Shown: piece after piece, positions 10,872-29,497 of the stretch
Position numbering within the stretch: position 1 is the first letter of the stretch
Layout: every line of letters begins with the position of its first letter
From: Gammaproteobacteria bacterium
Lineage (GTDB): Bacteria; Pseudomonadota; Gammaproteobacteria; JABHGC01
Direction: 5' to 3'
DNA length: 64,000 bases
Assembly: GCA_027077805.1 (NCBI GenBank)
Contig: JALWTS010000029.1
Location: forward strand, 3,792 to 67,791
Program-made: the position numbers and the translations under genes
Notes under the pieces: model-generated
What the model saw: only the letters and a program-made list of their open reading frames with translations
Databases searched by the model: none
What the model was told of the DNA's origin: nothing

Positions 10872-12389
10872 TTAAGCAAAAAATTGTAAGATGGCATTTA
10901 TAACGTTATCTTGTTGTTTTTTGGTAAGATAAGGGTGCATGGGTAAACTAATGACTTGTTGTGATAGTTGTTCAGCTATTGGCAAGGTAGCGGTATTTAA
11001 GTGTTGAAATACGGGTTGTTGGTGTAGTGCAATTGGATAATGAACGGCGGTAGGAATACCTTGTTGTTGTAGATGGGTTTGTAGTGAGTCACGTTGGGGA
11101 CATTGAATGGTATATTGGGCATAAACACTGGTATTTTCTGGGGCAATATAAGGGATGGTGACGGTATTTTGTAATGCTTGGTTATAATACTCTGCTAATC
11201 GTTGGCGATTTGGAATTTCTTGTTGCACAAATAACGTCCATTTTGCTAATAAAATCCCTGCTTGTAGGGTATCAAAACGGCCATTAATGCCGAAACGATC
11301 ATGAGAATAACGTTGGCTTTGACCATGAACTCGAATGGCTTGCATTGCCTTATAGAGAGCTTCATCATTGGTAAAACAGGCACCCCCATCTCCGTAACAA
11401 CCAAAAGGTTTTGCTGGGAAGAAACTCGTACACGCAATGGTGGTTAAGCCACAAGAGGGTTTTTGATGGTAAGTCGCACCAAAGCTTTGAGCGGCATCTT
11501 CGATGACAGCTAAGTTGTGTTTTTTAGCCATATCGTTGATGACATGAAAGTCAGCACATTGACCATATAGACTCACAGCAATAATCGCTTTGGTATTGGG
11601 TGTAATGGCTTGTTCAATGGCATTGGCTTGCAGATTATAAGTATTGGCATCAATATCAATAAAGACAGGTTTTGCCCCAACGAAAGCAATGACTTCTGCG
11701 GTAGCAATAAATGAAAAACTAGTGGTGATCACTTCATCGCCTTTCCCAATATCTAAAGCCATTAATGCCATAATTAAAGCATCCGTCCCACTCGCACAGG
11801 TCAGAGCATATTCCACTTGCGTAAATGTTGCTAACTGTTGTTCGAGTTGTTGCATTTCTTTACCAAGAATATACTGACCATGTTTTAATACTTGATGGAT
11901 TTGATACTCAATTTCGGGCAAACATTGGCGTTGTTGGGTTTTAAGATCAATAAAATCAAATTGATTTGGGTGAAAGTCTGTTGGGGAAGTGAGTTGTTTT
12001 AATGCGGTGGTTGGGGTTTGGATTTTAATGTTATCCGTGGTGGATGTCATAGGATTCGCAGTAATAATGATGGCGTGAGGTAAATAGTTTAATGTTGCTT
12101 GGTATAGTAGCTGTTGGTAATAATTTTGTGGCGATTGTTGATACAGTGCCTGTTGCTCTTTTGCAGAATAAGGCAAGGTTGAAAAGAGTTGTAGTAACTG
12201 CGAAAATTTTTCATGGCTTTGAGTGGTTGGCAATATGGAACTCGCATAGGCAAGTCCTGCTGGCGGTAACCATAGTTCCTCGCCTTTGTTTTGTAGTTGG
12301 CTTAATAAGGTTTGAGTGGCAGAATAATGGTTTTTTTCTAAAACCACCTCAATTAATACATTGATATCAAAAACGAACGGCATAGTCAT
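10872..12389 (-). CDS. DegT/DnrJ/EryC1/StrS (WbpE-like) sugar aminotransferase with an N-terminal PIN-like extension
   Basis: FIDLKTQ, SGTDAL, IEDAAQSFGA and SFFPAKPFGCYGDGG motifs; extra ~140 aa starting FVFDINVLIEVV. Confidence 0.85.
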   Translation of the reverse strand: MTMPFVFDINVLIEVVLEKNHYSATQTLLSQLQNKGEELWLPPAGLAYASSILPTTQSHEKFSQLLQLFSTLPYSAKEQQALYQQSPQNYYQQLLYQATLNYLPHAIIITANPMTSTTDNIKIQTPTTALKQLTSPTDFHPNQFDFIDLKTQQRQCLPEIEYQIHQVLKHGQYILGKEMQQLEQQLATFTQVEYALTCASGTDALIMALMALDIGKGDEVITTSFSFIATAEVIAFVGAKPVFIDIDANTYNLQANAIEQAITPNTKAIIAVSLYGQCADFHVINDMAKKHNLAVIEDAAQSFGATYHQKPSCGLTTIACTSFFPAKPFGCYGDGGACFTNDEALYKAMQAIRVHGQSQRYSHDRFGINGRFDTLQAGILLAKWTLFVQQEIPNRQRLAEYYNQALQNTVTIPYIAPENTSVYAQYTIQCPQRDSLQTHLQQQGIPTAVHYPIALHQQPVFQHLNTATLPIAEQLSQQVISLPMHPYLTKKQQDNVINAILQFFA

Positions 12390-14182: not shown

Positions 14183-14527
14183 ATGAATCAAATTATTCAA
14201 GCACTGGAAGCCGAACAAATGACTCGGGATATTCCTGAGTTTTCCCCGGGGGATACTGTTGTGGTTCAAGTCAAAGTAAAAGAGGGTAATCGCCAACGAT
14301 TACAAGCATTTGAAGGTTTTGTGATTGCAAAACGTAATCGAGGTTTGCATTCTTCCTTTACGGTACGCAAAATTTCGCATGGCGAAGGGGTAGAGCGGGT
14401 TTTTCAAACTTATAGTCCTTTAATTGAATCTATCAAGGTGAAACGTCGTGGTGATGTGCGTCGTGCTAAACTGTATTACTTACGCAATTTGCGTGGTAAA
14501 GCGGCGAGAATTAAGGAAAAATTATAA
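14183..14527 (+). CDS. rplS: 50S ribosomal protein L19
   Basis: [25 protein letters not shown]. Confidence 0.98.
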
Positions 14528-14537
14528 GTTAACTATT

Positions 14538-14565
14538 AAAAACCTTTGGTAAAGCAAAGGTTTTT
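14538..14565 (+). terminator. Intrinsic terminator after rplS
   Basis: AAAAACCTTTG-GTAAAG-CAAAGGTTTTT. Confidence 0.7.
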
Positions 14566-14593
14566 GGTTGGATATAAAGTGAGTAACTCAATC

Positions 14594-15076
14594 ATGCCTT
14601 CCTTTGATATTGTATCTGAAGTGGATTGACAAGAAGTTAAGAATGCCCAAGATCAGGCGAATCGGGAAATTAAACAGCGGTTTGATTTTCGTGGTTCAAA
14701 TGCTTATTTAGAACAAAATGAGAATAATATTGTCTTACATGCTGAAAATGAGTTTCAATTGCAACAAATGATGGATATTTTTGAAAAAAAATTGATTAAA
14801 CGTTCCATTGATATTGCTTGTTTGGATGCGAAATCGCCTGAAATTAGCGGTTCGTCAGCACGTCAAACTGTGGTAATAAAACAGGGTATTGAGACTGATA
14901 CGGCGAAGAAAATGGTAAAGGCAATCAAGTCAGGTAAATTAAAAGTACAGGCAAGTATTCAAGAACAACAAGTTCGGGTCAATGGTAAAAAACGTGATGA
15001 TTTGCAACAGGTCATCGCTTTAATCAAAAATACCAATGTTGGGTTGCCATTACAATTTATTAACTTTAGGGACTAA
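14594..15076 (+). pseudogene. yajQ: YajQ-family (c-di-GMP/nucleotide-binding) gene with an in-frame TGA at codon 12
   Basis: ATG 14594 reads [34 protein letters not shown], in frame with ORF 14759-15076 (GKKRDDLQ...LPLQFINFRD); TGA at 14627-14629. Confidence 0.85.
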
Positions 15077-15088
15077 CAAAGGATCATT

Positions 15089-15844
15089 ATGAGGATGAAT
15101 AAAGCGATAGTATGTTGGATTTTGTTATGGTTGAGTGTTGGATTATATGCGGCAAGTGCGGAAAATACCGATGCTCAAACAAAATCTAAATCTGATGACG
15201 CTTCACAGATTAAAGCAAGATTGACGGCAGCAGGATTGGTTCCTGACAAAATTTCAGTCACCGTTATTCCGGGTGTTTATGAAGTCGTCTATGGTGCTTC
15301 GATTATTTATATGAGTCAGGATGGACGATATTTAATCAAAGGCGAGATGATTGATATGCTTAGTGGAACCAATCTAACAAAAACCGCTTTAAACTCAAGT
15401 CGTCAATCGGTAATAAAGAATCTTCCAGAAGATAGTATGGTTATTTATCCCGCAAAAAATGAAAAGCATGTACTGACTGTATTTACTGATATTAACTGTG
15501 GTTATTGTCGTAAACTGCATTCAGGCATGGATAGAATGAATCAGCTAGGAATTACCGTACGTTATTTATTTTATCCACGCACAGGATTAAATACGCCTTC
15601 CTATGAGAAAGCTGTGTCAGTTTGGTGTTCGGATGACAGAAATAAGGCATTGACTTTAGCGAAACAGGGACGACCTATCCCACATAAAACCTGTGATAAT
15701 CCAGTGAGTAAGCATTTTCAGTTAGGGAATGAAATGGGCATTAGAGGAACGCCTGCCTTGATTTTTGCCGATGGGACTTTGTTACCTGGTTATTTACCGC
15801 CGGAAGAACTGTTAAAAGCACTGGATAGAAGTCATGAGTGGTGA
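15089..15844 (+). CDS. dsbC: Thiol:disulfide isomerase DsbC
   Basis: Signal peptide; VFTDINCGYCRKLH; GTPA. Confidence 0.93.
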   Translation: MRMNKAIVCWILLWLSVGLYAASAENTDAQTKSKSDDASQIKARLTAAGLVPDKISVTVIPGVYEVVYGASIIYMSQDGRYLIKGEMIDMLSGTNLTKTALNSSRQSVIKNLPEDSMVIYPAKNEKHVLTVFTDINCGYCRKLHSGMDRMNQLGITVRYLFYPRTGLNTPSYEKAVSVWCSDDRNKALTLAKQGRPIPHKTCDNPVSKHFQLGNEMGIRGTPALIFADGTLLPGYLPPEELLKALDRSHEW

Positions 15845-15944
15845 TGAAAAGTTTCGTTGCTTCCGAAATGGAAATGGCAGGCTATGTGTTGTCGCTTACT
15901 CAGGGGAGTTTGAGAGCAAGTAGCGGTTGATTACAGTTGCTGTA

Positions 15945-16940
15945 TTAATCCGTTGCATTAAAGAGAAATACTGTTTGCGAAACGGAGGCACGGAAGTCAT
16001 CTTGAATGGCTGCCATATCAATTTCACCTGTTGATGTGAGCGGGAATTCTTCTAGCAGGATATAGTGATTGGGAATCATTGATTCAGGTAGGTATTGGGA
16101 CAAATAATGACGCAGTTGGGAAACCGTATGCATATTGATAAAATAATTCTTTTGCTTGGTGATTTCAGTGACACATTGGGCTAATTTTGCTGTTTGGCTA
16201 GAGTTTGCCATAAACGCCACACCGATTTCACTCTTTCGACACCAAGCAATGGTTCCTCTGAGTGGTAATATATCTTGACTATTAGGAACCGTAAACTCAA
16301 TATTAACAATATCACCTGCTTGCCAATTGGATGGACAGTTTTGTAGGTGAATACCCCCACAGGAAAAGTCTTGGATTGTGACGGTGTGCTTATCTGTTTC
16401 ATTCTCGTGAGTGAGACGACAAGTATTGTTGTAGGGAACTCGAAAATCTTTTCGATGCTTATCTAACGCAAGAAATCGACCGACTTGTGCGGTTGAAAAC
16501 CATTCATTTTGGCTAATACTGTGAATGCTACGTTTTAAGATATTTTCATATTCGCCTTCTTGAAATTGCAGACCAATTTTATCTTGCGATATCCATGATA
16601 CTTTTGCTGATAGTGTGACGCCTTCTAACAGTGGTAACGACATTTTTAATGCCACTTTTTCATGCATGGTAAATTTTTCGGGATGATTAATAGAGATACA
16701 GGCGCCTTGTTTTGAGATGTCATAAGTTGTCGTGGTTTCTTTATAGTCATGACAACGAATAAAACAATCAATATTGATCAATAAGCGATCAATTTCTAAC
16801 AGTGAAGTAAAATAAGCCATAAGTAATGGCTTATCGGTAAGATTGGGTTTTTCAATCACTACGGAGTCTTTGATGCTAGGGTGTGAATTAAGTGCCGAAG
16901 TGATTTGTTCCGTATCGATGTTGGAATTTTGATGAGACAT
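15945..16940 (-). CDS. Adenylation C-subdomain (AMP-binding_C-like) interrupted by tandem PilZ domains
   Basis: N-terminal IDTEQITSALNSHPSIKDSVV...LLMAYF; PilZ motifs DISKQG and RKDFR...DFSCGG; C-terminal LRHYLSQYLPESMIPNHYILLEEFPLTSTGEID. Confidence 0.8.
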   Translation of the reverse strand: MSHQNSNIDTEQITSALNSHPSIKDSVVIEKPNLTDKPLLMAYFTSLLEIDRLLINIDCFIRCHDYKETTTTYDISKQGACISINHPEKFTMHEKVALKMSLPLLEGVTLSAKVSWISQDKIGLQFQEGEYENILKRSIHSISQNEWFSTAQVGRFLALDKHRKDFRVPYNNTCRLTHENETDKHTVTIQDFSCGGIHLQNCPSNWQAGDIVNIEFTVPNSQDILPLRGTIAWCRKSEIGVAFMANSSQTAKLAQCVTEITKQKNYFINMHTVSQLRHYLSQYLPESMIPNHYILLEEFPLTSTGEIDMAAIQDDFRASVSQTVFLFNATD

Positions 16941-16942
16941 AG

Positions 16943-17266
16943 TTAACGTTCTAAATATTTTAGTTTTTCTTTAACGCCATTCCACTGATCTGCCTCATCG
17001 GGAGGTGCCTGCATTTCAGTAATCACTGGCCATTTTTGTGCGAGTTCGGCATTAATTTCCAGAAATTGCTGTTGATCGTCAGGTAGGTCATTATCTGAAA
17101 AAATTGCTTCCGCAGGGCATTCTGGTTCACATAGGGTACAATCAATACATTCTTCTGGATCAATGACCAGAAAATTTGGTCCTTCATGAAAACAATCCAC
17201 TGGACAAACTTCTACGCAATCGGTGTATTTACATTTTATGCAATTTTCTACTACAACAAATGTCAT
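16943..17266 (-). CDS. fdxA: 7Fe ferredoxin FdxA
   Basis: [26 protein letters not shown]...[12 protein letters not shown]. Confidence 0.95.
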
Positions 17267-17299
17267 TTCGTTCCCTTTTTAAGTTTTTGCCTCTCAAAA

Positions 17300-17590
17300 T
17301 TAAGTCGTTGAAGTTTTTAGTGTCATACTCCTGTCCGCAGGCAATGGAATATTTACCTCTAAGATATGTTTATCGTTTTTGGTATCCATTTGTACTTCAA
17401 CTTGCTCTTGTTCTTCACTGATATTAATATATTTTCTTACCGCTTCTAAGATGTCTTTTTGTAAGGCAGGTAGATAATCAGGCATTTTACTTCTGTCTGA
17501 TCTTCTACGCTCTTCTATAATAATGGTTAAACGATTTTTTGCAATTTCTGCTGGTTTCGGTTCTTTTTTACGCCAAAATAAGAGTTCCAT
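17300..17590 (-). CDS. minE: Cell division topological specificity factor MinE
   Basis: AEIAKNRLTIII, YLPALQKDILEAVRKY, LEVNIPLP. Confidence 0.93.
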   Translation of the reverse strand: MELLFWRKKEPKPAEIAKNRLTIIIEERRRSDRSKMPDYLPALQKDILEAVRKYINISEEQEQVEVQMDTKNDKHILEVNIPLPADRSMTLKTSTT

Positions 17591-17592
17591 AA

Positions 17593-18411
17593 CTAATTCC
17601 CCGCAAATAAACGACTGAACAAACTTTTGGGTGGTGGATCAATAAAACGATGAGGACATTCCCCCCCCAATAAACGTGTGATCGTATCACGATAGGCTTG
17701 TGCCGGGGGACTGGTTTCATCGTGTAAAATAATCGGTGTTCCAAGGCTAGACGATTTTAAAATATCTCTTGATTCGGGAATCACACCAATCGTTGGTATT
17801 GCTAAAATGTCATCAATATCACTCATAGATAACATTTCACCTTCTTCCACTCTCGAAGGATTATAGCGTGTAATTAATAAGTTTTGACGAATTGGCTCTA
17901 AATTTTCTTCCGCACGTTTCGATTTTGAATCTAAAATACCTAACATTCTATCCGAATCTCTTACCGATGAGATTTCAGGGTTAGTGACGACAATGGCTTC
18001 ATCGGCAAAATACATGGCTAAATAAGCACCACTTTCGATACCTGCGGGTGAATCACAAATAATATATTCAAAATCTTGTTGTTTGAGCTGGGAAAGAATC
18101 GATTCGACTCCTTCTTTAACTAAATGATCTTTATCTCGGGTTTGTGATGCGGCTAAGATGTAGAGATTTGACAAGCGTTTGTCTTTGATCAATGCTTGGT
18201 GAAGTTTTGCTTCGCCATGGATAACATTGATAAGATCAAATACCACTCTGCCTTCGCAACCCATAATCACATCTAAGTTACGCAAACCAACGTCAAAATC
18301 AATGACAGCCGTTTTATGGCCTTCTAGTGCTAATCCTGCGGCGATATTGGCACTAGTCGTCGTTTTTCCTACGCCACCTTTCCCTGATGTTACGACAATA
18401 ATTTTAGTCAC
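17593..18411 (-). CDS. minD: Septum site-determining ATPase MinD
   Basis: TSGKGGVGKTT, DFDVGLRNLD, DSPAGIE, C-terminal amphipathic LFSRLF; GTG start at 18411 with GGAGG RBS. Confidence 0.96.
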   Translation of the reverse strand: MTKIIVVTSGKGGVGKTTTSANIAAGLALEGHKTAVIDFDVGLRNLDVIMGCEGRVVFDLINVIHGEAKLHQALIKDKRLSNLYILAASQTRDKDHLVKEGVESILSQLKQQDFEYIICDSPAGIESGAYLAMYFADEAIVVTNPEISSVRDSDRMLGILDSKSKRAEENLEPIRQNLLITRYNPSRVEEGEMLSMSDIDDILAIPTIGVIPESRDILKSSSLGTPIILHDETSPPAQAYRDTITRLLGGECPHRFIDPPPKSLFSRLFAGN

Positions 18412-18480
18412 GGTTTCCTCCTCCAAAAAAACTCTCACCATTAATTTCAAATTGATAGCTTATGATTTTGTTGTGTACCC

Positions 18481-19209
18481 TTAAGCATTGGTTTCTTGTA
18501 ATGGTTCAATAATCAGTTTATCCTTCCTTAAATAAATTTGTATTGGCTTGTTTTTATACGCTTTTATTTCCTGCATAATTTCATCTTTCGGTTTGTAAAT
18601 GCCTGCGATTGAAATAAGCTGTGCTTCGAGTGATTGACAAAAAATTCTTGCATGGGTGTTCCCATTGGCACCTGCTGCGGCACGGCCTTTTAACGTGCCA
18701 TAAATATGGATATCATGATCGGCAATCACTTCCGCCCCTTCATTGACGGATTTCAATGCAATAATATCGCCGTTTTTAGCATAAATTTGTTGCCCTGAGC
18801 GAATCGCATGAGGCGTAATTTTTGTGGTTGGTTCTGAGGATGGTGTTTTGTTTGATTCTTTATTAGCAGGTAGAGTTTGCTTATCGGGAGGAGGCGAAAG
18901 TTTTTCTTTGTTAAAGATGGCAATCTTGAGTAATTGAGTAATTTCTTTTTGTTCTTTCGTTGGATCCGGTAAGACAATCCCGACAGGATAAATCTGGTAG
19001 GTTTGTAGTAGATTGACCAATGAGACTAACCAATTCTTGAGTTCCAAAACCGAGTTTTGTGGAGAAATGACAACCGGTGCGGACTGGAAAAATTGTTTCG
19101 ATTGTGTTAGCATTTTTTCCAAGTCTAATTCAATTTGTTGTAAATCTTGGTCAAAAATTTGCAAGATCATTAAGGTAAAGGTTGAACCTTTAAATTTAAT
19201 GGCATCCAC
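18481..19209 (-). CDS. minC: Septum site-determining protein MinC
   Basis: IRSGQQIYA, GAEVIAD, IHIYGTLKGRAAAG, ISIAGIY. Confidence 0.93.
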   Translation of the reverse strand: MDAIKFKGSTFTLMILQIFDQDLQQIELDLEKMLTQSKQFFQSAPVVISPQNSVLELKNWLVSLVNLLQTYQIYPVGIVLPDPTKEQKEITQLLKIAIFNKEKLSPPPDKQTLPANKESNKTPSSEPTTKITPHAIRSGQQIYAKNGDIIALKSVNEGAEVIADHDIHIYGTLKGRAAAGANGNTHARIFCQSLEAQLISIAGIYKPKDEIMQEIKAYKNKPIQIYLRKDKLIIEPLQETNA

Positions 19210-19418
19210 CCGTTTTTTTGTCTCCTCTGGCGAAAAGAGTTAAGCAGTATCATTCGATTAAATGGTATAGTAATCAAAAGTCTTAAAAGTTTCAAGCAAA
19301 TCTCTAAATATTTTGTGGCTTTGATATTAATCAGTTTTTTTAGCGGAGGAATTTAAAATTATAATTTTGTCCTTATATAAATCAGTAAGATAAAAGTATT
19401 AAATATGAGGAGAAACTA

Positions 19419-21989
19419 ATGAGAATGGATAAGTTAACGAGCCAGCTACAAAATGCCTTAGCGGATGCTCAAAGTCTCGCTATCGGTAAGGACCATCAAT
19501 TTATTGAGCTAGTGCATTTAATGTTAGCCTTTTTGGATCAATCACAAAGCACTGTGCAACATTTATTTACTCAAATTGGTGTGAATAGTCGCCAGTTACG
19601 AGTCGATTTGACACAGCTCTTAGAACACTTGCCTAGTGTTCAGGGTGGTGCGGGGGATATACATTTATCAAATGAGTTAACTCGAGTATTAAACATTGCC
19701 GATAAATTAAGCCAACAACGTCAAGATAAATTTATTTCAAGTGAATTAGTCGTGTTAGCGATGCTAGAAAGTCAAACGAGTGTCGGTAAATTACTGCAAA
19801 AATCTGGGGTGAATGTTCAAGCAATGGATACTGCCATTGAGGCAATGAGGGGAGGAAAAACAGTGAATGATAGGAATGCGGAGGATCAACGCCAAGCCTT
19901 AGAAAAATATACCATTGATTTAACAGAACGCGCTGAGCAGGGTAAGCTTGATCCTGTTATTGGTCGAGATGATGAAATTCGTCGTACTATTCAAGTATTA
20001 CAACGTCGTACTAAAAATAATCCGGTATTAATTGGGGCACCTGGTGTCGGTAAGACCGCAATTATTGAAGGTTTAGCTCAGCGTGTGATTAATCAAGAAG
20101 TTCCAGAAGGCTTAAAAAATAAACGCATTTTAGCTTTAGATATGGGGGCATTAATTGCGGGGGCAAAATTTCGGGGTGAATTTGAAGAGCGTTTGAAAGC
20201 GGTATTGAATGATTTATCTAAACAACCCGGACAGATTATTTTATTTATTGATGAACTTCATACGATGGTAGGGGCAGGGAAAGCCGAAGGGGCAATGGAT
20301 GCGGGTAATATGTTAAAACCTGCTTTAGCCAGAGGTGAATTGCATTGCGTAGGGGCGACAACCTTAGATGAGTATCGTCAATATGTGGAGAAAGATGCGG
20401 CATTAGAACGTCGTTTCCAAAAAGTGATGGTCAATGAGCCGAGTGTCGAAGATACTATTGCTATTTTACGAGGTCTAAAAGAACGCTATGAAGTGCATCA
20501 TGGGGTTGATGTCACGGATCCTGCGATTGTGGCAGCCGCAACTTTGTCTTATCGCTATATTTCTGATAGACAATTACCGGATAAAGCCATTGATTTAATT
20601 GATGAAGCGGCCAGTCATATTCGGATGGAAATGGATTCTAAACCTGAATCCATGGAGAAACTAGAACGTCGCTTAATCCAATTTAAAATTGAACGTGAAG
20701 CCTTGAAAAAAGAAGCCGATCAAGCCTCTTTAAAACGCTTACAAGACTTAGAAACGGCGATTGTCGATTTAGAGCGACAATATTCGGATTTGGAAGAAAT
20801 TTGGAAAGCTGAAAAGGCGAGTTTACAAGGTTCACATCACATTAAAGAAGAATTAGAACGGGCAAAAATTGATTTGGAAACGGCGAGACGAGCAGGTGAT
20901 TTGGCGAGAATGTCCGAATTACAATATGGTCGTATTCCCGAATTAGTGCAACAATTAGCTTCGGTTACTGAAACTCAAGGACAAGAAAAAAAATTATTGC
21001 GTAATAAAGTCACTGATGAGGAAGTTGCTGAAGTTGTGTCTAAATGGACAGGGATTCCTGTTTCAAAAATGTTGGAAGGGGAAAAAGAAAAATTATTGCA
21101 AATGGAATCGGTATTAAGTAAACAAGTTGTCGGTCAAAATGAAGCCATTCAAGCGGTCAGTGATGCCATTCGACGTTCACGGGCAGGGTTGTCTGATCCG
21201 AATCGTCCTAATGGTTCCTTTTTATTTTTAGGACCAACTGGGGTGGGAAAAACGGAGTTATGTAAAACCTTAGCCGAATTTTTGTTTGATACCCAAGAGG
21301 CAATGGTGAGAATTGATATGTCAGAGTTTATGGAAAAACATTCGGTGGCAAGACTAATTGGGGCACCACCAGGTTATGTGGGGTATGAAGAAGGTGGCTA
21401 TTTAACGGAAGCCGTTAGACGTAAACCTTATTCCGTCATTTTATTAGATGAGGTGGAAAAGGCTCATTACGATGTATTTAATGTTTTATTACAAGTATTA
21501 GATGAGGGTCGTTTAACCGATGGTCAAGGTCGTACGGTTGATTTTCGTCATACAGTGATTGTGATGACCTCGAATTTAGGTTCGGATAAAATTCAAGCAA
21601 TGGCAAATGAATCTTATGACACGCTAAAAGCGAGTGTGATGGAGATTGTCGCACAATATTTTCGTCCTGAATTTATCAATCGGGTTGATGAGACGGTGGT
21701 TTTCCATCCGTTAGGACCATCTCAAATTCGTGCGATTGCCACCCTTCAAATTCAACAACTACGTCAACGTTTAGCCGACAGAGAAATGGAATTAACTATT
21801 ACGGAGGTTGCTTTGGATGAGTTGGGGCAATTAGGTTTTGATCCCGTTTATGGGGCGAGACCATTAAAACGGGTGATACAACAATATTTGGAAAATCCAT
21901 TCGCACAGAAAATTTTAGCAGGTGATTTTGTGGCGAAAGATCATATCACTGTTGATTATCAGAAAGGACAGTTTCGTTTTGCGAAATAG
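19419..21989 (+). CDS. clpB: ATP-dependent disaggregase ClpB
   Basis: Two AAA+ modules ([16 protein letters not shown]), middle coiled coil, GARPLKR. Confidence 0.98.
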
Positions 21990-23475: not shown

Positions 23476-26079
23476 ATGGGTTGGTTAGTTGCAATGGTTT
23501 TGGGGATATTATTTTGGCAAGCACAATTACAAATAAAAAAATTAAAACATCGGCAACAAAAAACTCAAGCGGAATCAAAAGGGTATCAAGCGCTTTCTGA
23601 TCTGATTTTATTACGTTTAGAATGTCAGCGTTTACAGACCTTAATCAAAGAGTCATCTGAGATTGATGTTGAGATTGATAATTCTGATTTATATCAATAT
23701 TGCCAAAATATTATTAACAAAATTGACCAATTATGGATGGAAAACTTAGCATCATTTGGTGCGGAAGTGGAACAATTATTATGGAAAGAGCGGCGACAGA
23801 TTGCTTGGCATTTATTACAGCAACAAAGCCATTTATCAAAATTAAACTTAAACTATTCACGACCGCCTTGGGTATTACTGGAATCAGAATTCCAGTCAAC
23901 ACCCTATCCATTATCACCGGTGCAATTAGAATTGGATTTCGAACGAAAACCTCAGTCTCAAATATTATTCACACCAACTGAAGCTGAGTTAAAACCAGAC
24001 ATGATAGCACTTGAAGTTCCAATTGAATCGAAAGTTGGAATTGCTACCGTTGAACCTGATACTAACGTTAAAACTGAGATTGAGCCTATTGATAATATCA
24101 AGCCAGAAACCAATCAACTTCTTGATACTAAAGTTGAAACTGAAATTCAAGTCCATCCCCCAAAAATTACAGAACCGGCACCCCCAAGTGCTTTAGAACA
24201 AATGATGCACAAAGTATCCGGTTGGTCATCCTTATTATTACCCTTTCTACAGCAAAATATTGGTTGGTTTTTAGGTGGATTTTGCTTTTTAGCAGGGTCA
24301 ATTTTCTTAGCGACTTATACCACTGGTTTGGTCAGTAATTTAGTCGTATTTTTAACGTTATTTGCTTATACCGTGTTTTTAGCATGGGCAGGTTATCAAT
24401 TACAAAAACATCGACCAGAGTTAAGTACAGCCAGTCGAGTGTTAATGATTTTAAGTGCCTTATTAATGCCACTAAATTTTACGGCAAGTGTTCGCTTTGT
24501 CGCACTATCTGACTCAATAGAGGCAATATTATTAAGCGGTTTGAGTTGGGCCTTAAGCGTGGCAGTATTTTATTATTTGTTAATGCTCATATCAGGATTA
24601 ATTGACCGAAACTTATCCTTATTACATGCGAGTTTATTTTTATTATTATCAGGATTACAAATCGTTTTACCTTTAACCCATGATTCACTGTTTTTTTTAA
24701 TGATGGCTCATTTGGTTTTATTTGTTGCCTTAAGTTATGGTTTTTTAAAGTTTTCTAATCAATGGATGCTACAAATTTTTGTAGAGCAAAAGGCCATGAC
24801 TTATTATGCCATTGGTAGTTTAGTTTATGCCACATTCGTTTCGTTTATTCATATGACTTGGTCATCTTCCGTCACCTTACCTCAAGGTTATCCCGCCCCT
24901 TTTATTATGTTATTCGTGGGGTTTGGTTTTTATTTAGACGCGGAATTTAAACAATGGACTAAACAGTCAGTTTTTTTCTCTAAAATCAATTTTTTATTAT
25001 ATGGCCTCTCTGTTTTTGCTTTACTACTGATCTGGTATGGTAAAGACTTTCAAATGATTACCTTGTTGGTAGGATTAATGGTTTATGCCATGCTGATATG
25101 GAAATATTTAAGTTTAGTCCCTTTATATTTATTTTTGTTATGTAGTGCTTGGTTATATGATTTACTTGTACTGCAATGGTTGGCATTGCAATGGTTTTTT
25201 ATCTCAGGATTACCCTTATTATTAACCATTGTTGCCTTAACTCGACTTGCGGAACATCGTCGGGCTTGGGCATTTGTTCAAGTTTTAAGTTTTTTCAATG
25301 GACTAAGTTTTGGTTTATTATTCGGTCTCAGTCTAGTATTTTCTCAACCGAGTTATATTGCCATGTTGACCATTGCGATTGCATGGTTTGGAATTTGGAG
25401 GGGGTTATCCAGAGTACCAAAATTTGAGACGACTATCCAAGGGGTGAGCTGTGAATGGCACAATAAAAGCCAAACCCGATGGTTATATATCATCCCCGTG
25501 GGGATGGCTTTATTTTTGGCTTATATGCCAATGGATTCTGACGATAAATTATTGGTTTTATTGATCACCAGTTTATTATGCTCTTATTGGGGGGCTAAGA
25601 TTTATTCCCATCATAAATTTTTATGGCAAACCTCCGCATCGGTTGAGTCTGTGGAATCTAGTGTTGTCATTGATAAACGTAGCGAGGTTTGGTTAAACAC
25701 AGCATTGCTTGGGTTTTTAGTCGTATTTGCGTGGATTTTATTGTTAGCAGTACAAGTCCCGAATTATCATGCCATACCCATCATATGGGCATTATTGTTA
25801 ATGGTGATGGCATGGAATTTATTATGGTTAAGTTTAGTACTGCAAGTACAGTGGTTTGTGTATGCCTTTTTAGTTTATATTACGCCAGCCTTGTTGGTAA
25901 TGAAATGGCAATATTTTCCTAGTTCTACAAAATCGGGTTTAGGGGCAATGTTATTAGCAATACTTGTTGCCGTTTGCTTAGTTTGGTTGCAACGGCGTAG
26001 TGCTTCCGAAGTCGTAAACAACTCTTATCCACCCTTGACACTATTCGCTTATCCTTTGGAGCAAAATCGTGAATACTAA
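23476..26079 (+). CDS. Large polytopic membrane protein (DUF2157/DUF2339-like N-terminal half)
   Basis: 867 aa; N-terminal TM and coiled coil, Pro/Glu-rich linker, then many TM helices from FLQQNIGWFLGGFCFLAGS. Confidence 0.75.
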   Translation: MGWLVAMVLGILFWQAQLQIKKLKHRQQKTQAESKGYQALSDLILLRLECQRLQTLIKESSEIDVEIDNSDLYQYCQNIINKIDQLWMENLASFGAEVEQLLWKERRQIAWHLLQQQSHLSKLNLNYSRPPWVLLESEFQSTPYPLSPVQLELDFERKPQSQILFTPTEAELKPDMIALEVPIESKVGIATVEPDTNVKTEIEPIDNIKPETNQLLDTKVETEIQVHPPKITEPAPPSALEQMMHKVSGWSSLLLPFLQQNIGWFLGGFCFLAGSIFLATYTTGLVSNLVVFLTLFAYTVFLAWAGYQLQKHRPELSTASRVLMILSALLMPLNFTASVRFVALSDSIEAILLSGLSWALSVAVFYYLLMLISGLIDRNLSLLHASLFLLLSGLQIVLPLTHDSLFFLMMAHLVLFVALSYGFLKFSNQWMLQIFVEQKAMTYYAIGSLVYATFVSFIHMTWSSSVTLPQGYPAPFIMLFVGFGFYLDAEFKQWTKQSVFFSKINFLLYGLSVFALLLIWYGKDFQMITLLVGLMVYAMLIWKYLSLVPLYLFLLCSAWLYDLLVLQWLALQWFFISGLPLLLTIVALTRLAEHRRAWAFVQVLSFFNGLSFGLLFGLSLVFSQPSYIAMLTIAIAWFGIWRGLSRVPKFETTIQGVSCEWHNKSQTRWLYIIPVGMALFLAYMPMDSDDKLLVLLITSLLCSYWGAKIYSHHKFLWQTSASVESVESSVVIDKRSEVWLNTALLGFLVVFAWILLLAVQVPNYHAIPIIWALLLMVMAWNLLWLSLVLQVQWFVYAFLVYITPALLVMKWQYFPSSTKSGLGAMLLAILVAVCLVWLQRRSASEVVNNSYPPLTLFAYPLEQNREY

Positions 26080-29000
26080 TATTTTAAGACAGCCATTTGA
26101 ATATGCCTTATGGCTGATTTGGGGGAGTGGTTTATTAAGAATGATGTTGGCAGAAACGAGTGATTCTTATTCTTGGTTATTTGCCATGATATTAGCAGGT
26201 TTCGTCACGATTTTTATGGCGGGTTATTTTCGACAATTACAATTGTTACCCATTGCGGTTGGTTTATTTGCAATGGTGTGGTTAGCCTTTTTATGGGAGA
26301 AACAGTGGTGGTCAAGTCATCTTGGAATGGCATTGGCGTTAATGTTGTATGTCAATTTATTGTGGTCAGGAACCATGTGGCTATTAGCTTATCCTAAGTT
26401 TAAACAAGGATTGGCACTTTTAAATTTTCAAGGCAATTATACCGAAGCTGGGGGGAAAAACTTAGCGGTTAAATATATTCACTGGACAGCAATGATCTTA
26501 ATGTTCGCTACTGTGATTATTACCATAAGTGAGCCTGCGGATCATGCTTTATATAAAGGATTAACCATTAGTTTGGCTATGTTATTTTTGTTTTGTGCGG
26601 GGCAATATTTACAGCAAGAATTACATAGTTATTTATTACTCGGTTTCGCCGCGTTTTTAGTGTTAGTTTTATCACTGAAAGCCGGCATTTATTTTGTTGT
26701 TTTCGCCAATATTTATTTATTATTTCGTTATCTTTTGCCCAGTCAAAAAACTTGGGGTTTAGATTTCTCACTTTATCAGTATGCTTTACCTAGAACAGCC
26801 GTTGCTTTGACGTTAATTGCGAGTATTCATCCTTTAATCGCAGTATTGGTCCCTCATTCTTTATATACAACTCCCTTCACCACAACCACCCTCATCTTAA
26901 TCCCCCTCACCCTATTCGCAAGCAATTACTATCTCAAAAAAAAATGGTTAACCTTTATTACCGTCAGTTTTGCCTTGTGGAGTATGAGTTGGTTGATAGG
27001 TTGGTGGGGAATGGATTTTGTGTTGTATCTATGGCAAGTACCAAGCACGAAAACTTGGTTAATTATTAGCATCATGGCATGGCTACTAAGTAATATTAAC
27101 CATTTGACTATGATTAAACGTTCTGATTATTACCAAGCCATTCAATGGCATGTATTATTTTTAATCATTGTTAGTAGTATAGGAGCGATTATTACTTTAT
27201 CAGAACGACAACGTATTGAACTGAGTCATCTTAATTTAACATTAGTGTTTATTATCCTTACAGCAGCAATGTGGCCATTTTGTCATATTTTTGGCAGATT
27301 TATCTCAGGATGGCGTGGTTTGTCAATGGCAATATTTGCTAGTCTTGCTTGGGGGAGTGTTGTTTTATGGCAGAGTTGGTGGCCATGGGCAATTTGGGCA
27401 GTGGTTTTATGGTTTGCTCAAAACTTTGTTTTAGCAAAATATGAAAAATTAATGGAAGTAAAAAGCTTTTCTTTGTTAGGAGCAGGATTGATTTTAGCAA
27501 GTAGTAGCCTACTACAATCCAATGATTGGATGGCATATGTATTATTTGTCCTTGTTTATCTTATACTCTTATTACGAAACTTTTATTGGGTGGGTTTGCC
27601 AATTTTAATTGGCATTGGTTTATTCGTATTACCATTAGTTGGCATTTATTCTTATCTTGATTTTGAGTTGTACCAATCCAATTGGTATAGGATTTTTACT
27701 TTGATAACCGCTTATTTATTATGGCTAAACTTGCTATGGTGGTTAATTCCATTAGAATCCAAATGGCAAGCCGTATTAAGTCGTTGGGGATGGCAAGATT
27801 TTTCATTAAAATTACCGATTGTTACGTTTTCAATCACGCTATTAGTGGCATTGCCATTTGGAATACTGGCATTAATAATTGAGCAAAATCAACGAGGACA
27901 AGCAGAAAGTGTTGCTATTATTGCTAGCTTATTATTGTTATTTTCATTTTGGCGTTGGCAAACCCAAACGTATTTAAACGCTTTTATTGGAATTAAAGTC
28001 TTATCCTTACTAACCGTTTTTATACTCAATGCCAGTATTTGGCAATGGTTTGGAGGTTCTTTATTATCGCCATTGTTTTGGGTAGCTTCCGCGATATTTA
28101 GTTGGGGACTACGGCAATATCCCATTAAAAAGTACTTTGCTAAGTTTGACTTAGAATTAGCCATTTATTTAAGTTTTGTGCTGACTTGGATTTGTTTCAT
28201 TCTGTCTCCATCATCATGGCAACAAATCTTTATTAGCCTAGTGGGTTTAATGGTCGTGTCAATTTTAATGGCAATTTCGCAACAAAAATCACATTGGCTG
28301 TGGAGTTCAGCCATTATCATGTTATTGCTATTACACGCATGGCCATTATTATGGGTAGATACCCAATATATTCCTCATTTATGGTCGTTGTATAGTTTAG
28401 AAATTGTAGGACTAGCTTGGGGATTATATTTTTTACCAACATTTCTACCATCATTCCAAAAAACTCAGCCATTGTTATTAGCGATTGCGATAATCGAATG
28501 GTTAGCGCATTTAATGTTAGTCGTATTTTTATACGATCATGGACAGAGTATTTGGCATTTTGGTTGGATTGAAAGTGGCTTAGCAGTGATTGCTATAACT
28601 GGTTTCGCTTGCTTTTTTGGCTGGCAATGGTTACGCAGTGATAACTCTCAAGAGGTTACTGAAAGTTTCACGTTGATTTCAAGCCTGTTATTGATAGTCT
28701 ATTTGCGATTATTATGGTTAGGACTACAAGCCATTAGTGTTTGGGATACGGCAATGATGATGGTAATGGCTTATCTCTTACTTGCGCTACAACACTGGAA
28801 ACCTATTGCGAATATCTGGTTTTACTTGCTACCTATATTAGCCGTTGCTTCCGTCCCAATACAGTTAGCATCAATGAGTACTACCATTGTACTCATAACC
28901 GTTGCCGTATTTTACGGTTTTCTTAATTATCATCAAGAACAACCATCCGCCCATAATTTCTCCCCCACATGGGGGGGACTACCGTTTTATTTCGCCTTGT

Positions 29001-29497
29001 TTGCCATTAATATGGCGTGTTATTTATGGATTCCAATATGGGTACAACAAACGAATTTGTTACAAATGTATTTAATTCCTGTCTCATTAAGTGTGTTATT
29101 GTTAGCTCATTTACATCGCCAAGAACTAAAATCAAACGTATTGATGGCGACTCGGTTGCTGGCTTTAAGTGTCTTTTATGCCAGTGCGACTTTAGATGTA
29201 TTTTTACAACAACAATTTTTAGTATTTTTGTTAGCACTAGGCATTAGCTTTTTGGGCATTATTATTGGAATTGCTTTGAGAATTAAAATCTTTTTATATA
29301 CCGGCACCGCATTTTTAGTCTTAAATGTCTTAGGTCAACTCATTCAATTTTATCCAGAGCAACGTTTAGCGAAGGCTTTCGTATTAATGGGCTTAGGAGT
29401 GGTGATTACCGCAGGAATGATAGGTTTCCAAATTAAAAAAGAACAAATTATGCAAAAAATTCGGATTATTCGGGCTGATTTAGCCGAGTGGGATTAA
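26069..29497 (+). CDS. Very large Trp-rich polytopic membrane protein (SCO7613-like C-terminus)
   Basis: 1142 aa, almost all TM; ends GIALRIKIFLYTGTAFL...RADLAEWD; GTG start with GGAG RBS, overlapping the upstream stop. Confidence 0.75.
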   Translation: MNTNILRQPFEYALWLIWGSGLLRMMLAETSDSYSWLFAMILAGFVTIFMAGYFRQLQLLPIAVGLFAMVWLAFLWEKQWWSSHLGMALALMLYVNLLWSGTMWLLAYPKFKQGLALLNFQGNYTEAGGKNLAVKYIHWTAMILMFATVIITISEPADHALYKGLTISLAMLFLFCAGQYLQQELHSYLLLGFAAFLVLVLSLKAGIYFVVFANIYLLFRYLLPSQKTWGLDFSLYQYALPRTAVALTLIASIHPLIAVLVPHSLYTTPFTTTTLILIPLTLFASNYYLKKKWLTFITVSFALWSMSWLIGWWGMDFVLYLWQVPSTKTWLIISIMAWLLSNINHLTMIKRSDYYQAIQWHVLFLIIVSSIGAIITLSERQRIELSHLNLTLVFIILTAAMWPFCHIFGRFISGWRGLSMAIFASLAWGSVVLWQSWWPWAIWAVVLWFAQNFVLAKYEKLMEVKSFSLLGAGLILASSSLLQSNDWMAYVLFVLVYLILLLRNFYWVGLPILIGIGLFVLPLVGIYSYLDFELYQSNWYRIFTLITAYLLWLNLLWWLIPLESKWQAVLSRWGWQDFSLKLPIVTFSITLLVALPFGILALIIEQNQRGQAESVAIIASLLLLFSFWRWQTQTYLNAFIGIKVLSLLTVFILNASIWQWFGGSLLSPLFWVASAIFSWGLRQYPIKKYFAKFDLELAIYLSFVLTWICFILSPSSWQQIFISLVGLMVVSILMAISQQKSHWLWSSAIIMLLLLHAWPLLWVDTQYIPHLWSLYSLEIVGLAWGLYFLPTFLPSFQKTQPLLLAIAIIEWLAHLMLVVFLYDHGQSIWHFGWIESGLAVIAITGFACFFGWQWLRSDNSQEVTESFTLISSLLLIVYLRLLWLGLQAISVWDTAMMMVMAYLLLALQHWKPIANIWFYLLPILAVASVPIQLASMSTTIVLITVAVFYGFLNYHQEQPSAHNFSPTWGGLPFYFALFAINMACYLWIPIWVQQTNLLQMYLIPVSLSVLLLAHLHRQELKSNVLMATRLLALSVFYASATLDVFLQQQFLVFLLALGISFLGIIIGIALRIKIFLYTGTAFLVLNVLGQLIQFYPEQRLAKAFVLMGLGVVITAGMIGFQIKKEQIMQKIRIIRADLAEWD

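Follow-up and report, generated by a model that had tools for sequence, protein, structure and literature searches.

The output of non-ribosomal peptide synthetases (NRPSs) is mostly controlled at transcription, and stand-alone PilZ proteins usually act through contacts with other proteins. Here we describe an open reading frame (ORF) that combines parts of both kinds of system. It lies in a 64,000-nucleotide stretch of contig JALWTS010000029.1 from a gammaproteobacterium (genome G000); the whole stretch is referred to below as the window. The ORF product, which we call P0001 and whose residue numbering is used throughout, carries two PilZ domains within the split C-terminal subdomain (Asub) of an NRPS adenylation (A) domain. 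We lean towards reading P0001 as an exapted, selected, non-catalytic receptor of cyclic di-GMP (c-di-GMP) that originated from an NRPS cassette.

The closest described relatives on the enzyme side are interrupted NRPS A domains such as TioS A4, in which a methyltransferase is inserted (5wmm). These share with P0001 a foreign domain in the Asub between motifs a8 and a9, a location named as a known A-domain interruption site in the accessible text of a survey of such enzymes (PMC8341866). Here the insert is a signalling module of one to three PilZ domains, not a tailoring enzyme, and whereas the embedded relatives of P0001 are found in NRPS modules, P0001 stands alone, without the adenylation core (A-core), the peptidyl carrier protein (PCP) or the lysine of motif A10. 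Compared with the C-subdomain of ANL enzymes (MenE, 3ipl; PltF, 6o6e; PheA, 1amu), the two termini of P0001 together share the fold and have A9- and A10-like motifs, but score below the profile cut-off, have no A8 hairpin or hinge, carry glutamate in place of lysine and are not preceded by an N-terminal core.

On the sensor side, the best matches to the whole predicted structure are two-barrel c-di-GMP receptors (PlzA, 7mie; MotI/DgrA, 5vx6; VCA0042/PlzD, 1yln and 2rde; PP4397, 3kyf; MrkH, 5ejl; YcgR, 5y6f). Proteins of the xPilZ-PilZ type bind c-di-GMP in the linker that precedes the second domain, according to the accessible text of a review of PilZ proteins (bioRxiv 10.1101/814665). P0001 has in common with this xPilZ-PilZ or YcgR type the tandem barrels and an RxxxR motif that is located in the linker before a canonical second barrel and missing from the first. 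Unlike the YcgR type, its first barrel scores as PilZ, keeping a DxSxxG motif and a C-terminal helix, and no family of the PilZN/YcgR or PilZNR kind (PF07317, PF12945) was found in P0001 by Pfam at E≤10. The barrels also sit in a loop of another domain and differ in mutual arrangement. A last comparison is with MapZ bound to CheR1 (5xly, 5y4r): P0001 is likewise small and enzyme-less, a putative receptor that would act on a partner protein, but MapZ-type proteins have a single barrel and known partners, whereas P0001 has two barrels and an Asub stub.

There are no occurrences of PilZ or c-di-GMP in the accessible text of the interrupted-A-domain survey, whose supplements could list other architectures, and none of NRPS, adenylation or AMP-binding in that of the PilZ review. 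No paper describing a PilZ domain within an A domain was found in the searchable literature, which excludes subscription journals and supplements. Databases already tag such domains, for example in protein P0158, which is assigned PF07238, PF00501, PF13193 and PF00550.

Two PilZ domains within a split, non-catalytic Asub

The PilZ profile (PF07238) matched P0001 over two stretches with 88.6 bits against a cut-off of 22.5 (E=3.9e-25), and a scan of the whole genome placed the two domains at residues 52-130 and 162-257 (49.9 and 43.8 bits, respectively). The first domain, PilZ1, has one arginine only (R52) and no RxxxR motif, and retains [D/N]xSxxG; the second, PilZ2, has both motifs. Across 14 two-PilZ units, made up of P0001 and 13 embedded in NRPSs, PilZ1 has the invariant arginine in 14/14, DxSxxG in 12/14 and RxxxR in 0/14, and PilZ2 has RxxxR and [D/N]xSxxG in 10/14 each. 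Of eight two-PilZ units scored with the PilZ profile, P0001 came out at the top, followed by units with 73.1, 67.9, 67.3, 66.1, 52.1, 47.3 and 28.0 bits. With both of its motifs present and this top score, PilZ2 plausibly binds c-di-GMP.

The enzyme part has the opposite ranking. The AMP-binding_C profile (PF13193) reached 19.1 bits in P0001, under its cut-off of 24.5, with the best stretch at residues 272-305 on profile positions 42-75, compared with 30.0-48.9 bits in embedded relatives. Among the seven two-PilZ units with a detected AMP-binding_C domain, P0001 was the lowest, the rest scoring 30.0-43.9. NCBIfam models of NRPS, DltA and FadD proteins matched residues 248-323 (E from 1.4e-7 to 1e-4), and a MenE model matched weakly at residues 7-33. 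Because the PilZ score is at the top and the AMP-binding_C score at the bottom of the units scored, the sensor part of P0001 is the better kept of the two.

The two halves of the Asub could also be recognized separately. Residues 1-50 alone matched 96 of 149 NRPS proteins and residues 263-331 alone matched 149 of 149 (E≤1e-3); with ten shuffles of each half, there were no matches except for a single match in one shuffle. Only the figure for the N-terminal half is an independent test, because the set of 149 proteins had been selected with the whole of P0001, which favours the C-terminal half. The N-terminal half corresponds to the post-hairpin part of NRPS motif A8 ('IELxEIE...VAY'): the start of P0001 ('..IDTEQI') aligns to 'IELGEIE', without the 'KIRGxR' strand of A8 and without the hinge. 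At A10, Gly-Lys is present in 13/13 of the NRPS-embedded two-PilZ units and Gly-Glu in P0001 alone, and the A9 tyrosine is replaced by serine only in P0001 among the 14 units (it is phenylalanine in L002). Past A10 there is neither the 'ALPxP' linker nor a PCP, and the ORF holds no A-core. Upstream of the ATG the frame is open for just ten codons and that DNA is fdxA, so no adenylation core can precede P0001. From the glutamate at the A10 lysine position and the lack of A8 hairpin, hinge, A-core and PCP it follows that P0001 would be non-catalytic.

These results agree in most respects with a first-pass annotation made from the sequence alone. Profiles, alignments and motifs recover the anatomy that it proposed, namely A8 and A9-A10 halves around two PilZ barrels with DISKQG, RKDFR, DFSCGG and, at A10, STGEID, and its view of the protein as non-catalytic is upheld by Glu306 and the missing parts listed above. 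It had seen no A-core, PCP or NRPS gene in the window, and indeed AMP-binding had no Pfam match on the window's contig and no NRPS domain was found in the eight largest ORFs of the window. Pfam assignments and coordinates likewise confirm the position that it gave for the ORF, 2 bp after fdxA at the end of minC-minD-minE-fdxA. Of the two profiles that it named for the halves and the barrels, PF07238 was detected, and PF13193 fell short of its cut-off.

The same cassette is embedded in NRPS modules

When 5.8 billion clusters were searched by a word-based method, P0001 was the only match and the only member of its cluster. Nearly all of the 9168 matches (E≤1e-3) in a HMMER scan covering 1.84 billion representatives were NRPSs in which A9-A10 made the match, and in 25 of the best 150 of these hits the PilZ part (residues 45-265) was matched as well. 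Pfam was run on five of the 25 PilZ-bearing proteins, and four of the five have the order condensation (C) domain, A domain with PilZ within AMP-binding_C, PCP, and then a further C domain or a thioesterase domain. Matches collinear with the whole cassette (residues 7-313) had E values of 1e-37 to 1e-40 and lay in complete NRPS modules. In G002, a genome of a sister genus in the same family, residues 7-313 are matched with 26% identity (E=1.5e-37) inside a frame of 3859 amino acids, and in G126 and G167 the matches fall within frames of 3015 and 3082 amino acids. Together with G024, which has one PilZ domain where these three have two, at least four PilZ-interrupted NRPSs occur in a sample of 401 genomes of the class, in each of which up to 5 candidates were scored. 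Source names within the embedded family include Microcoleus sp., Kamptonema sp. and a gammaproteobacterial metagenome-assembled genome (MAG).

The insert begins 44-89 residues past the A8 motif and stops 42-67 residues before the end of A10, as measured in those of the 25 representatives in which patterns found both motifs, and it occupies the same place in P0001. Units are about 194 residues long with one PilZ domain, 295-326 with two and 393 with three (P0002), and the single-PilZ units resemble PilZ1. Because the same Asub-PilZ-PilZ-Asub cassette occurs inside complete NRPS modules, the alignments identify P0001 as derived from a piece of an NRPS that carried a PilZ insert. The NRPSs of its own genome were rejected as the source: their matches cover only residues ~247-326 of P0001, and the genome scan found no PilZ inside any of the genome's own A domains.

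No stand-alone copy other than P0001 was found among 120 listed of at least 486 profile matches (125-762 amino acids, E≤1e-10). Among these 120, PilZ was present only in P0158, P0159 and P0001, and the first two also contain AMP-binding and PP-binding domains. P0036 and P0144, two short proteins in the list of relatives, are pieces of NRPSs that include the beginning of a PCP. In a protein atlas only clusters of AMP-binding_C fragments were found, at 0.84, which is below the atlas's own trust level.

The NRPS origin of the cassette had been missed by the first-pass annotation, and its overall interpretation, a non-catalytic c-di-GMP receptor that uses the Asub fold for output or docking, is partly supported. 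It had also considered that homologues might reveal a broken fragment of a full NRPS. Derivation from an NRPS piece touches on that concern; that P0001 is merely such a fragment is the relic explanation weighed below.

Several embedded units are unusual in their own right. The fifth protein scanned, P0101 (1321 amino acids), has a C domain, then about 400 residues without an AMP-binding match, two PilZ domains in an Asub and a PCP. Its A10 reads 'NNSGGVQF', with no lysine, making it a degenerate embedded version; a cluster mate is named as a MAG, Gammaproteobacteria bacterium. P0013 (residues 678-1112) and P0003 (residues 1901-2330; Microcoleus sp.) each contain a second Asub-PilZ unit without an A-core; it is preceded by an Asub with a PilZ interruption and by the truncated beginning of a PCP. 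These second units begin at 'IELGEI', a boundary shared with P0001, and in P0013 the A10 lysine is threonine.

Predicted structure of P0001

We modelled P0001 with AlphaFold2 (AF2) from an alignment of seven rows, the rows being NRPS-embedded relatives. The model has a mean predicted local distance difference test (pLDDT) score of 83.1 and a predicted template modelling (pTM) score of 0.76, and is poor only at residues 1-5 and 314-331. It was compared with 48,161 chains using VIA-align and with the Protein Data Bank (PDB) using Foldseek. By VIA-align, a model range from residue 4 to residues 300-321 aligned to at least 35 ANL chains with Z scores of 9.0-11.3 and root-mean-square deviations (rmsd) of 1.7-3.1 Å over 69-100 residues. 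Asub matches included MenE (3ipl; Z 11.3, rmsd 2.0 Å over 76 residues), PltF (Z 10.8) and PheA (Z 9.7), as well as Txo2 and TycA/B. The methyltransferase-interrupted A domain of TioS (5wmm) aligned across its own interruption (chain residues 421-903; Z 10.2). In the model, then, both termini form one Asub, as had been anticipated from the sequence.

Among the barrels, PilZ2 (model residues 165-262) aligned to the PilZ domain of a cellulose synthase (4i86) with Z 14.2 and rmsd 2.0 Å over 96 residues, and the six-stranded barrel fold is backed by Z scores of 12-13 to the PilZ domains of Alg44, YcgR and PA0012. The top ranks of the Foldseek search were two-barrel c-di-GMP receptors, with PlzA (7mie, E=1.2e-9) first, followed by MotI, VCA0042, PP4397, MrkH and YcgR; by VIA-align, MotI had Z 14.0 over model residues 54-265. 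The rmsd over both barrels was nevertheless 13-18 Å against the two-barrel receptors, so the mutual arrangement of the barrels in the model differs from that of known receptors.

A retained receptor or a decaying relic

If P0001 has been kept by selection as a c-di-GMP receptor, we infer that RKDFR and DFSCGG would hold the ligand at the entrance to PilZ2, by analogy with the linker site of YcgR, MotI and PlzA. PilZ1, with its one arginine and DISKQG, would then close over the ligand. With both barrels suspended from a single loop of the Asub, closure would alter the surface that the Asub stub and the barrels offer to a partner. The split Asub would thereby serve as a clasp and possibly as a contact surface. 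Under this reading, P0001 would show how part of a megasynthase can be put to new use in signalling.

A less favoured explanation, which we regard as unlikely, is that P0001 is a relic: an NRPS piece consisting of Asub and PilZ insert that arrived between fdxA and dsbC, where it decays without function, with a frame that is open by origin. The loss of the catalytic lysine, the A8 hairpin and the LPxP/PCP part fits such a history. Decay, however, would be expected to strike all parts alike, yet in P0001 the PilZ score is the best of eight and the PilZ2 motifs are intact, whereas the Asub score is the worst. An architecture otherwise found only inside NRPSs, and a protein that is a singleton in 5.8 billion clusters, are also what a relic would present. 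The closest relative of P0001, on the other hand, is just 29-30% identical, which implies either a long stay, during which a neutral frame would close at a rate of 6.6% stops per codon, or an unsampled donor. Also against a relic are the confident AF2 model, a G+C content of 38.4% that is in line with the 37.6% of the genome, and a start codon only 2 nucleotides (nt) beyond the stop of fdxA, as would suit translational coupling. A further point against it is that the gene is not flanked by the repeats that a recent insertion leaves, a single weak inverted pair and no direct repeats having been found around it.

In G002, the order yajQ-dsbC-fdxA is as in the window and a 317-bp spacer takes the place of the P0001 gene, an absence that a relic would also account for. 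Since fdxA and dsbC are adjacent there with no gene between them, the comparison identifies the P0001 gene as a lineage-specific insertion behind fdxA, and its operon partners as recent company. The embedded units share only 27-37% identity with one another, so they give no measure of the time since excision; the mean identity of P0001 to them is 25%, the lowest of the 14. In a tree of the 14 units, P0001 joins another long branch with weak support.

Several observations count against retention as a receptor. The codon usage of the gene is atypical, its coding score ranking at the 2.3rd percentile among 997 long ORFs, and the branch leading to P0001 is the longest of the 14 units (2.06 versus a median of 1.25). 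No Shine-Dalgarno-like sequence was seen before the ATG. There is no orthologue on which selection could be measured, as P0001 is the sole member of its cluster and no further stand-alone form turned up among the matches listed. The embedded units are so divergent that P0001 may have broken off recently from an NRPS that has not been sampled, and a piece cut from a long ORF would be open by default. The Asub fold in the model is partly expected from the input, the rows of the alignment being NRPS-embedded relatives. Finally, one contig from a second sequencing run, X2, has a frame-shifting 4-nt insertion (TTTC) at 16768, which would also be in line with a relic; this contig has a depth of 2.4 of 4.4, and a difference in a single contig under depth 5 may be an error.

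On the other side, the ORF in the window is intact. Its in-frame coding score is 0.199, versus -0.50 and -1.10 in the other frames, and an open frame of 341 codons has a chance probability of 6.6e-11 at the local base composition. Apart from the insertion-bearing contig, run X2 yielded two identical 151-nt pieces with no usable variation, and its other pieces are the fdxA of other organisms. The run that contains the whole stretch is labelled as a hydrothermal vent metagenome and may be its source. No RNA datasets are listed among the sequencing runs that contain the stretch.

Candidate partners

If P0001 is a receptor, an NRPS megasynthase of its own genome is the leading guess for its partner, itself a rather unlikely one. 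The organism has, by its gene content, a c-di-GMP signalling system: the genome (G000; 2.55 Mb in 50 contigs, 94% complete) contains 17 GGDEF, 17 EAL and 9 PilZ matches, beside 52 to AMP-binding and 43 to AMP-binding_C.

It seems improbable to us that P0001, as a receptor, instead targets the Min division system or the ferredoxin with which it would be translationally coupled, with the Asub stub as a mere clasp for the barrels. The genes are on the same strand with tight gaps (33 nt between minE and fdxA and 2 nt between fdxA and the ORF), terminator-like sites in the intervening sequence are not above the level in shuffles, and this mode of action would match the usual protein contacts of stand-alone PilZ proteins, MapZ-CheR1 (5xly, 5y4r) being among the fold hits. 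The gene order, however, is not conserved in G002, where other genes come after minCDE and fdxA has a separate location, or in G001, in which fdxA faces murA; the neighbourhood is therefore young and little informative.

It is very improbable that P0001 works in trans as the missing Asub of an incomplete A domain: one module, at C15:146065-147090 in a frame of 10887 amino acids, does hold just the N-terminal half of an Asub, but this is the same half that P0001 also has, the other NRPS A domains checked all have their own A8-A10 region, the A10 lysine required for adenylation is glutamate in P0001 and the A8 hairpin and hinge required for the thiolation state are missing.

PilZ-interrupted A domains as a possible regulatory class

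Tentatively, we suggest that PilZ-interrupted A domains are an unrecognized class in which c-di-GMP gates an NRPS through the swing of the Asub, and that P0001 is an exapted, free-standing version of this switch. Ligand bound to barrels in the a8-a9 loop would lock or bias the swing of the Asub between its adenylation and thiolation states, and P0001, as a free-standing switch, would sense c-di-GMP on behalf of a new partner. If so, this would be a direct, post-translational c-di-GMP switch on an assembly line, placed inside the moving part of the A domain, and a new kind of interrupted A domain in which the insert is regulatory instead of tailoring. P0001, with 331 residues and no enzyme, would be a natural minimal construct of such a switch. 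If P0001 is a relic, the interest rests with the family of embedded PilZ inserts.

Leaving out fragments, 23 representatives remain, and in 14 of them the A domain with the interruption belongs to the protein's first module, with A8 near residue 406-426 or 860-973. This bias is no more than a hint of gating at initiation, since several of these proteins may come from genes cut short in metagenomes.

Feature coordinates, neighbouring genes and NRPS loci

The coordinates of the P0001 gene, its parts and its neighbours are collected in Table 1.

Table 1 Features of the P0001 gene and its surroundings, in window coordinates.
Feature	Position	Strand	Basis
Whole ORF, 331 amino acids and stop (P0001)	15945-16940	-	ORF list; in-frame coding score
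Asub N-half, aa 8-46: helix 10-18 and beta-hairpin ending 'LLMAYF'	16803-16919	-	Alignments, AF2, structure alignments from residue 4
PilZ1, aa 48-144: barrel and C-terminal helix 132-143	16509-16799	-	Pfam, AF2
DISKQG of PilZ1, aa 74-79	16704-16721	-	Motif reading
PilZ2, aa 162-264: canonical barrel and helix 247-264	16149-16457	-	Pfam, AF2
RKDFR (RxxxR), aa 163-167, in linker before second barrel	16440-16454	-	Motif reading
DFSCGG of PilZ2, aa 191-196	16353-16370	-	Motif reading
Asub C-half, aa 266-313: A9-like 'LPESMIP' (284-290), A10-like 'PLTSTGEID' (300-308)	16002-16145	-	Profiles, alignments
Codon GAA, Glu306 at catalytic A10 lysine position	16023-16025	-	Sequence; motif STGEID, aa 303-308
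C-terminal tail, aa 314-331, pLDDT below 50; in place of 'ALPxP' linker and PCP of NRPS relatives	15948-16001	-	AF2, alignment
fdxA, 7Fe-type ferredoxin, 107 aa, Fer4 and DUF3470	16943-17266	-	Pfam
minE, upstream, same strand as ORF	17300-17590	-	Pfam
minD, upstream, same strand as ORF	17593-18450	-	Pfam
minC, upstream of fdxA, same strand as ORF	18481-19209	-	Pfam
dsbC, convergent, end 100 nt from ORF stop; yajQ next	15089-15844	+	Pfam

Signals of transcription around the gene were unremarkable. No terminator-like site beyond the level in shuffles was found between fdxA and the ORF, promoter-like sites (11 versus 12.1 in shuffles) and terminator-like sites (4 versus 3.2) showed no excess, and Rfam gave no matches in window positions 14500-19600.

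The NRPS load of G000 is unusually heavy for a 2.55-Mb genome. The AMP-binding matches are mostly in frames of 6875, 6896, 10887, 12077 and 12141 amino acids (contigs C15, C30, C34, C42 and C4). Just ahead of the 10887-residue frame, which starts at C15:123631, and on the opposite strand, C15:120610-122805 holds c-di-GMP genes, comprising a PilZ frame of 135 amino acids and an EAL frame of 630 amino acids with a weak GGDEF match (E=2.1e-7). In the truncated module of the same NRPS frame, the A domain keeps A8 and the first half of the Asub and then runs into unrelated sequence, with no A9 or A10 motif or PCP found by pattern in the 300 residues after C15:147090. The break falls at a8-a9, the location that inserts also occupy.

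Three further observations concern other genes of the window. The yajQ gene (DUF520; 14594-15076, plus strand) has an in-frame TGA at 14627-14629, after 'MPSFDIVSEVD', and the frame past it still matches profile positions 57-161 and beyond. A nonsense mutation, an error and read-through are all conceivable explanations; in other places TGA acts as a stop, the end of dsbC being an example. Two adjoining ORFs of 867 and 1142 amino acids (23476-26079 and 26069-29497, plus strand) match no Pfam family at E≤1e-5. A DegT/DnrJ/EryC1 aminotransferase is encoded at 10872-12389 (minus strand); its Pfam match begins at residue 160, and the first ~159 residues are without assignment.

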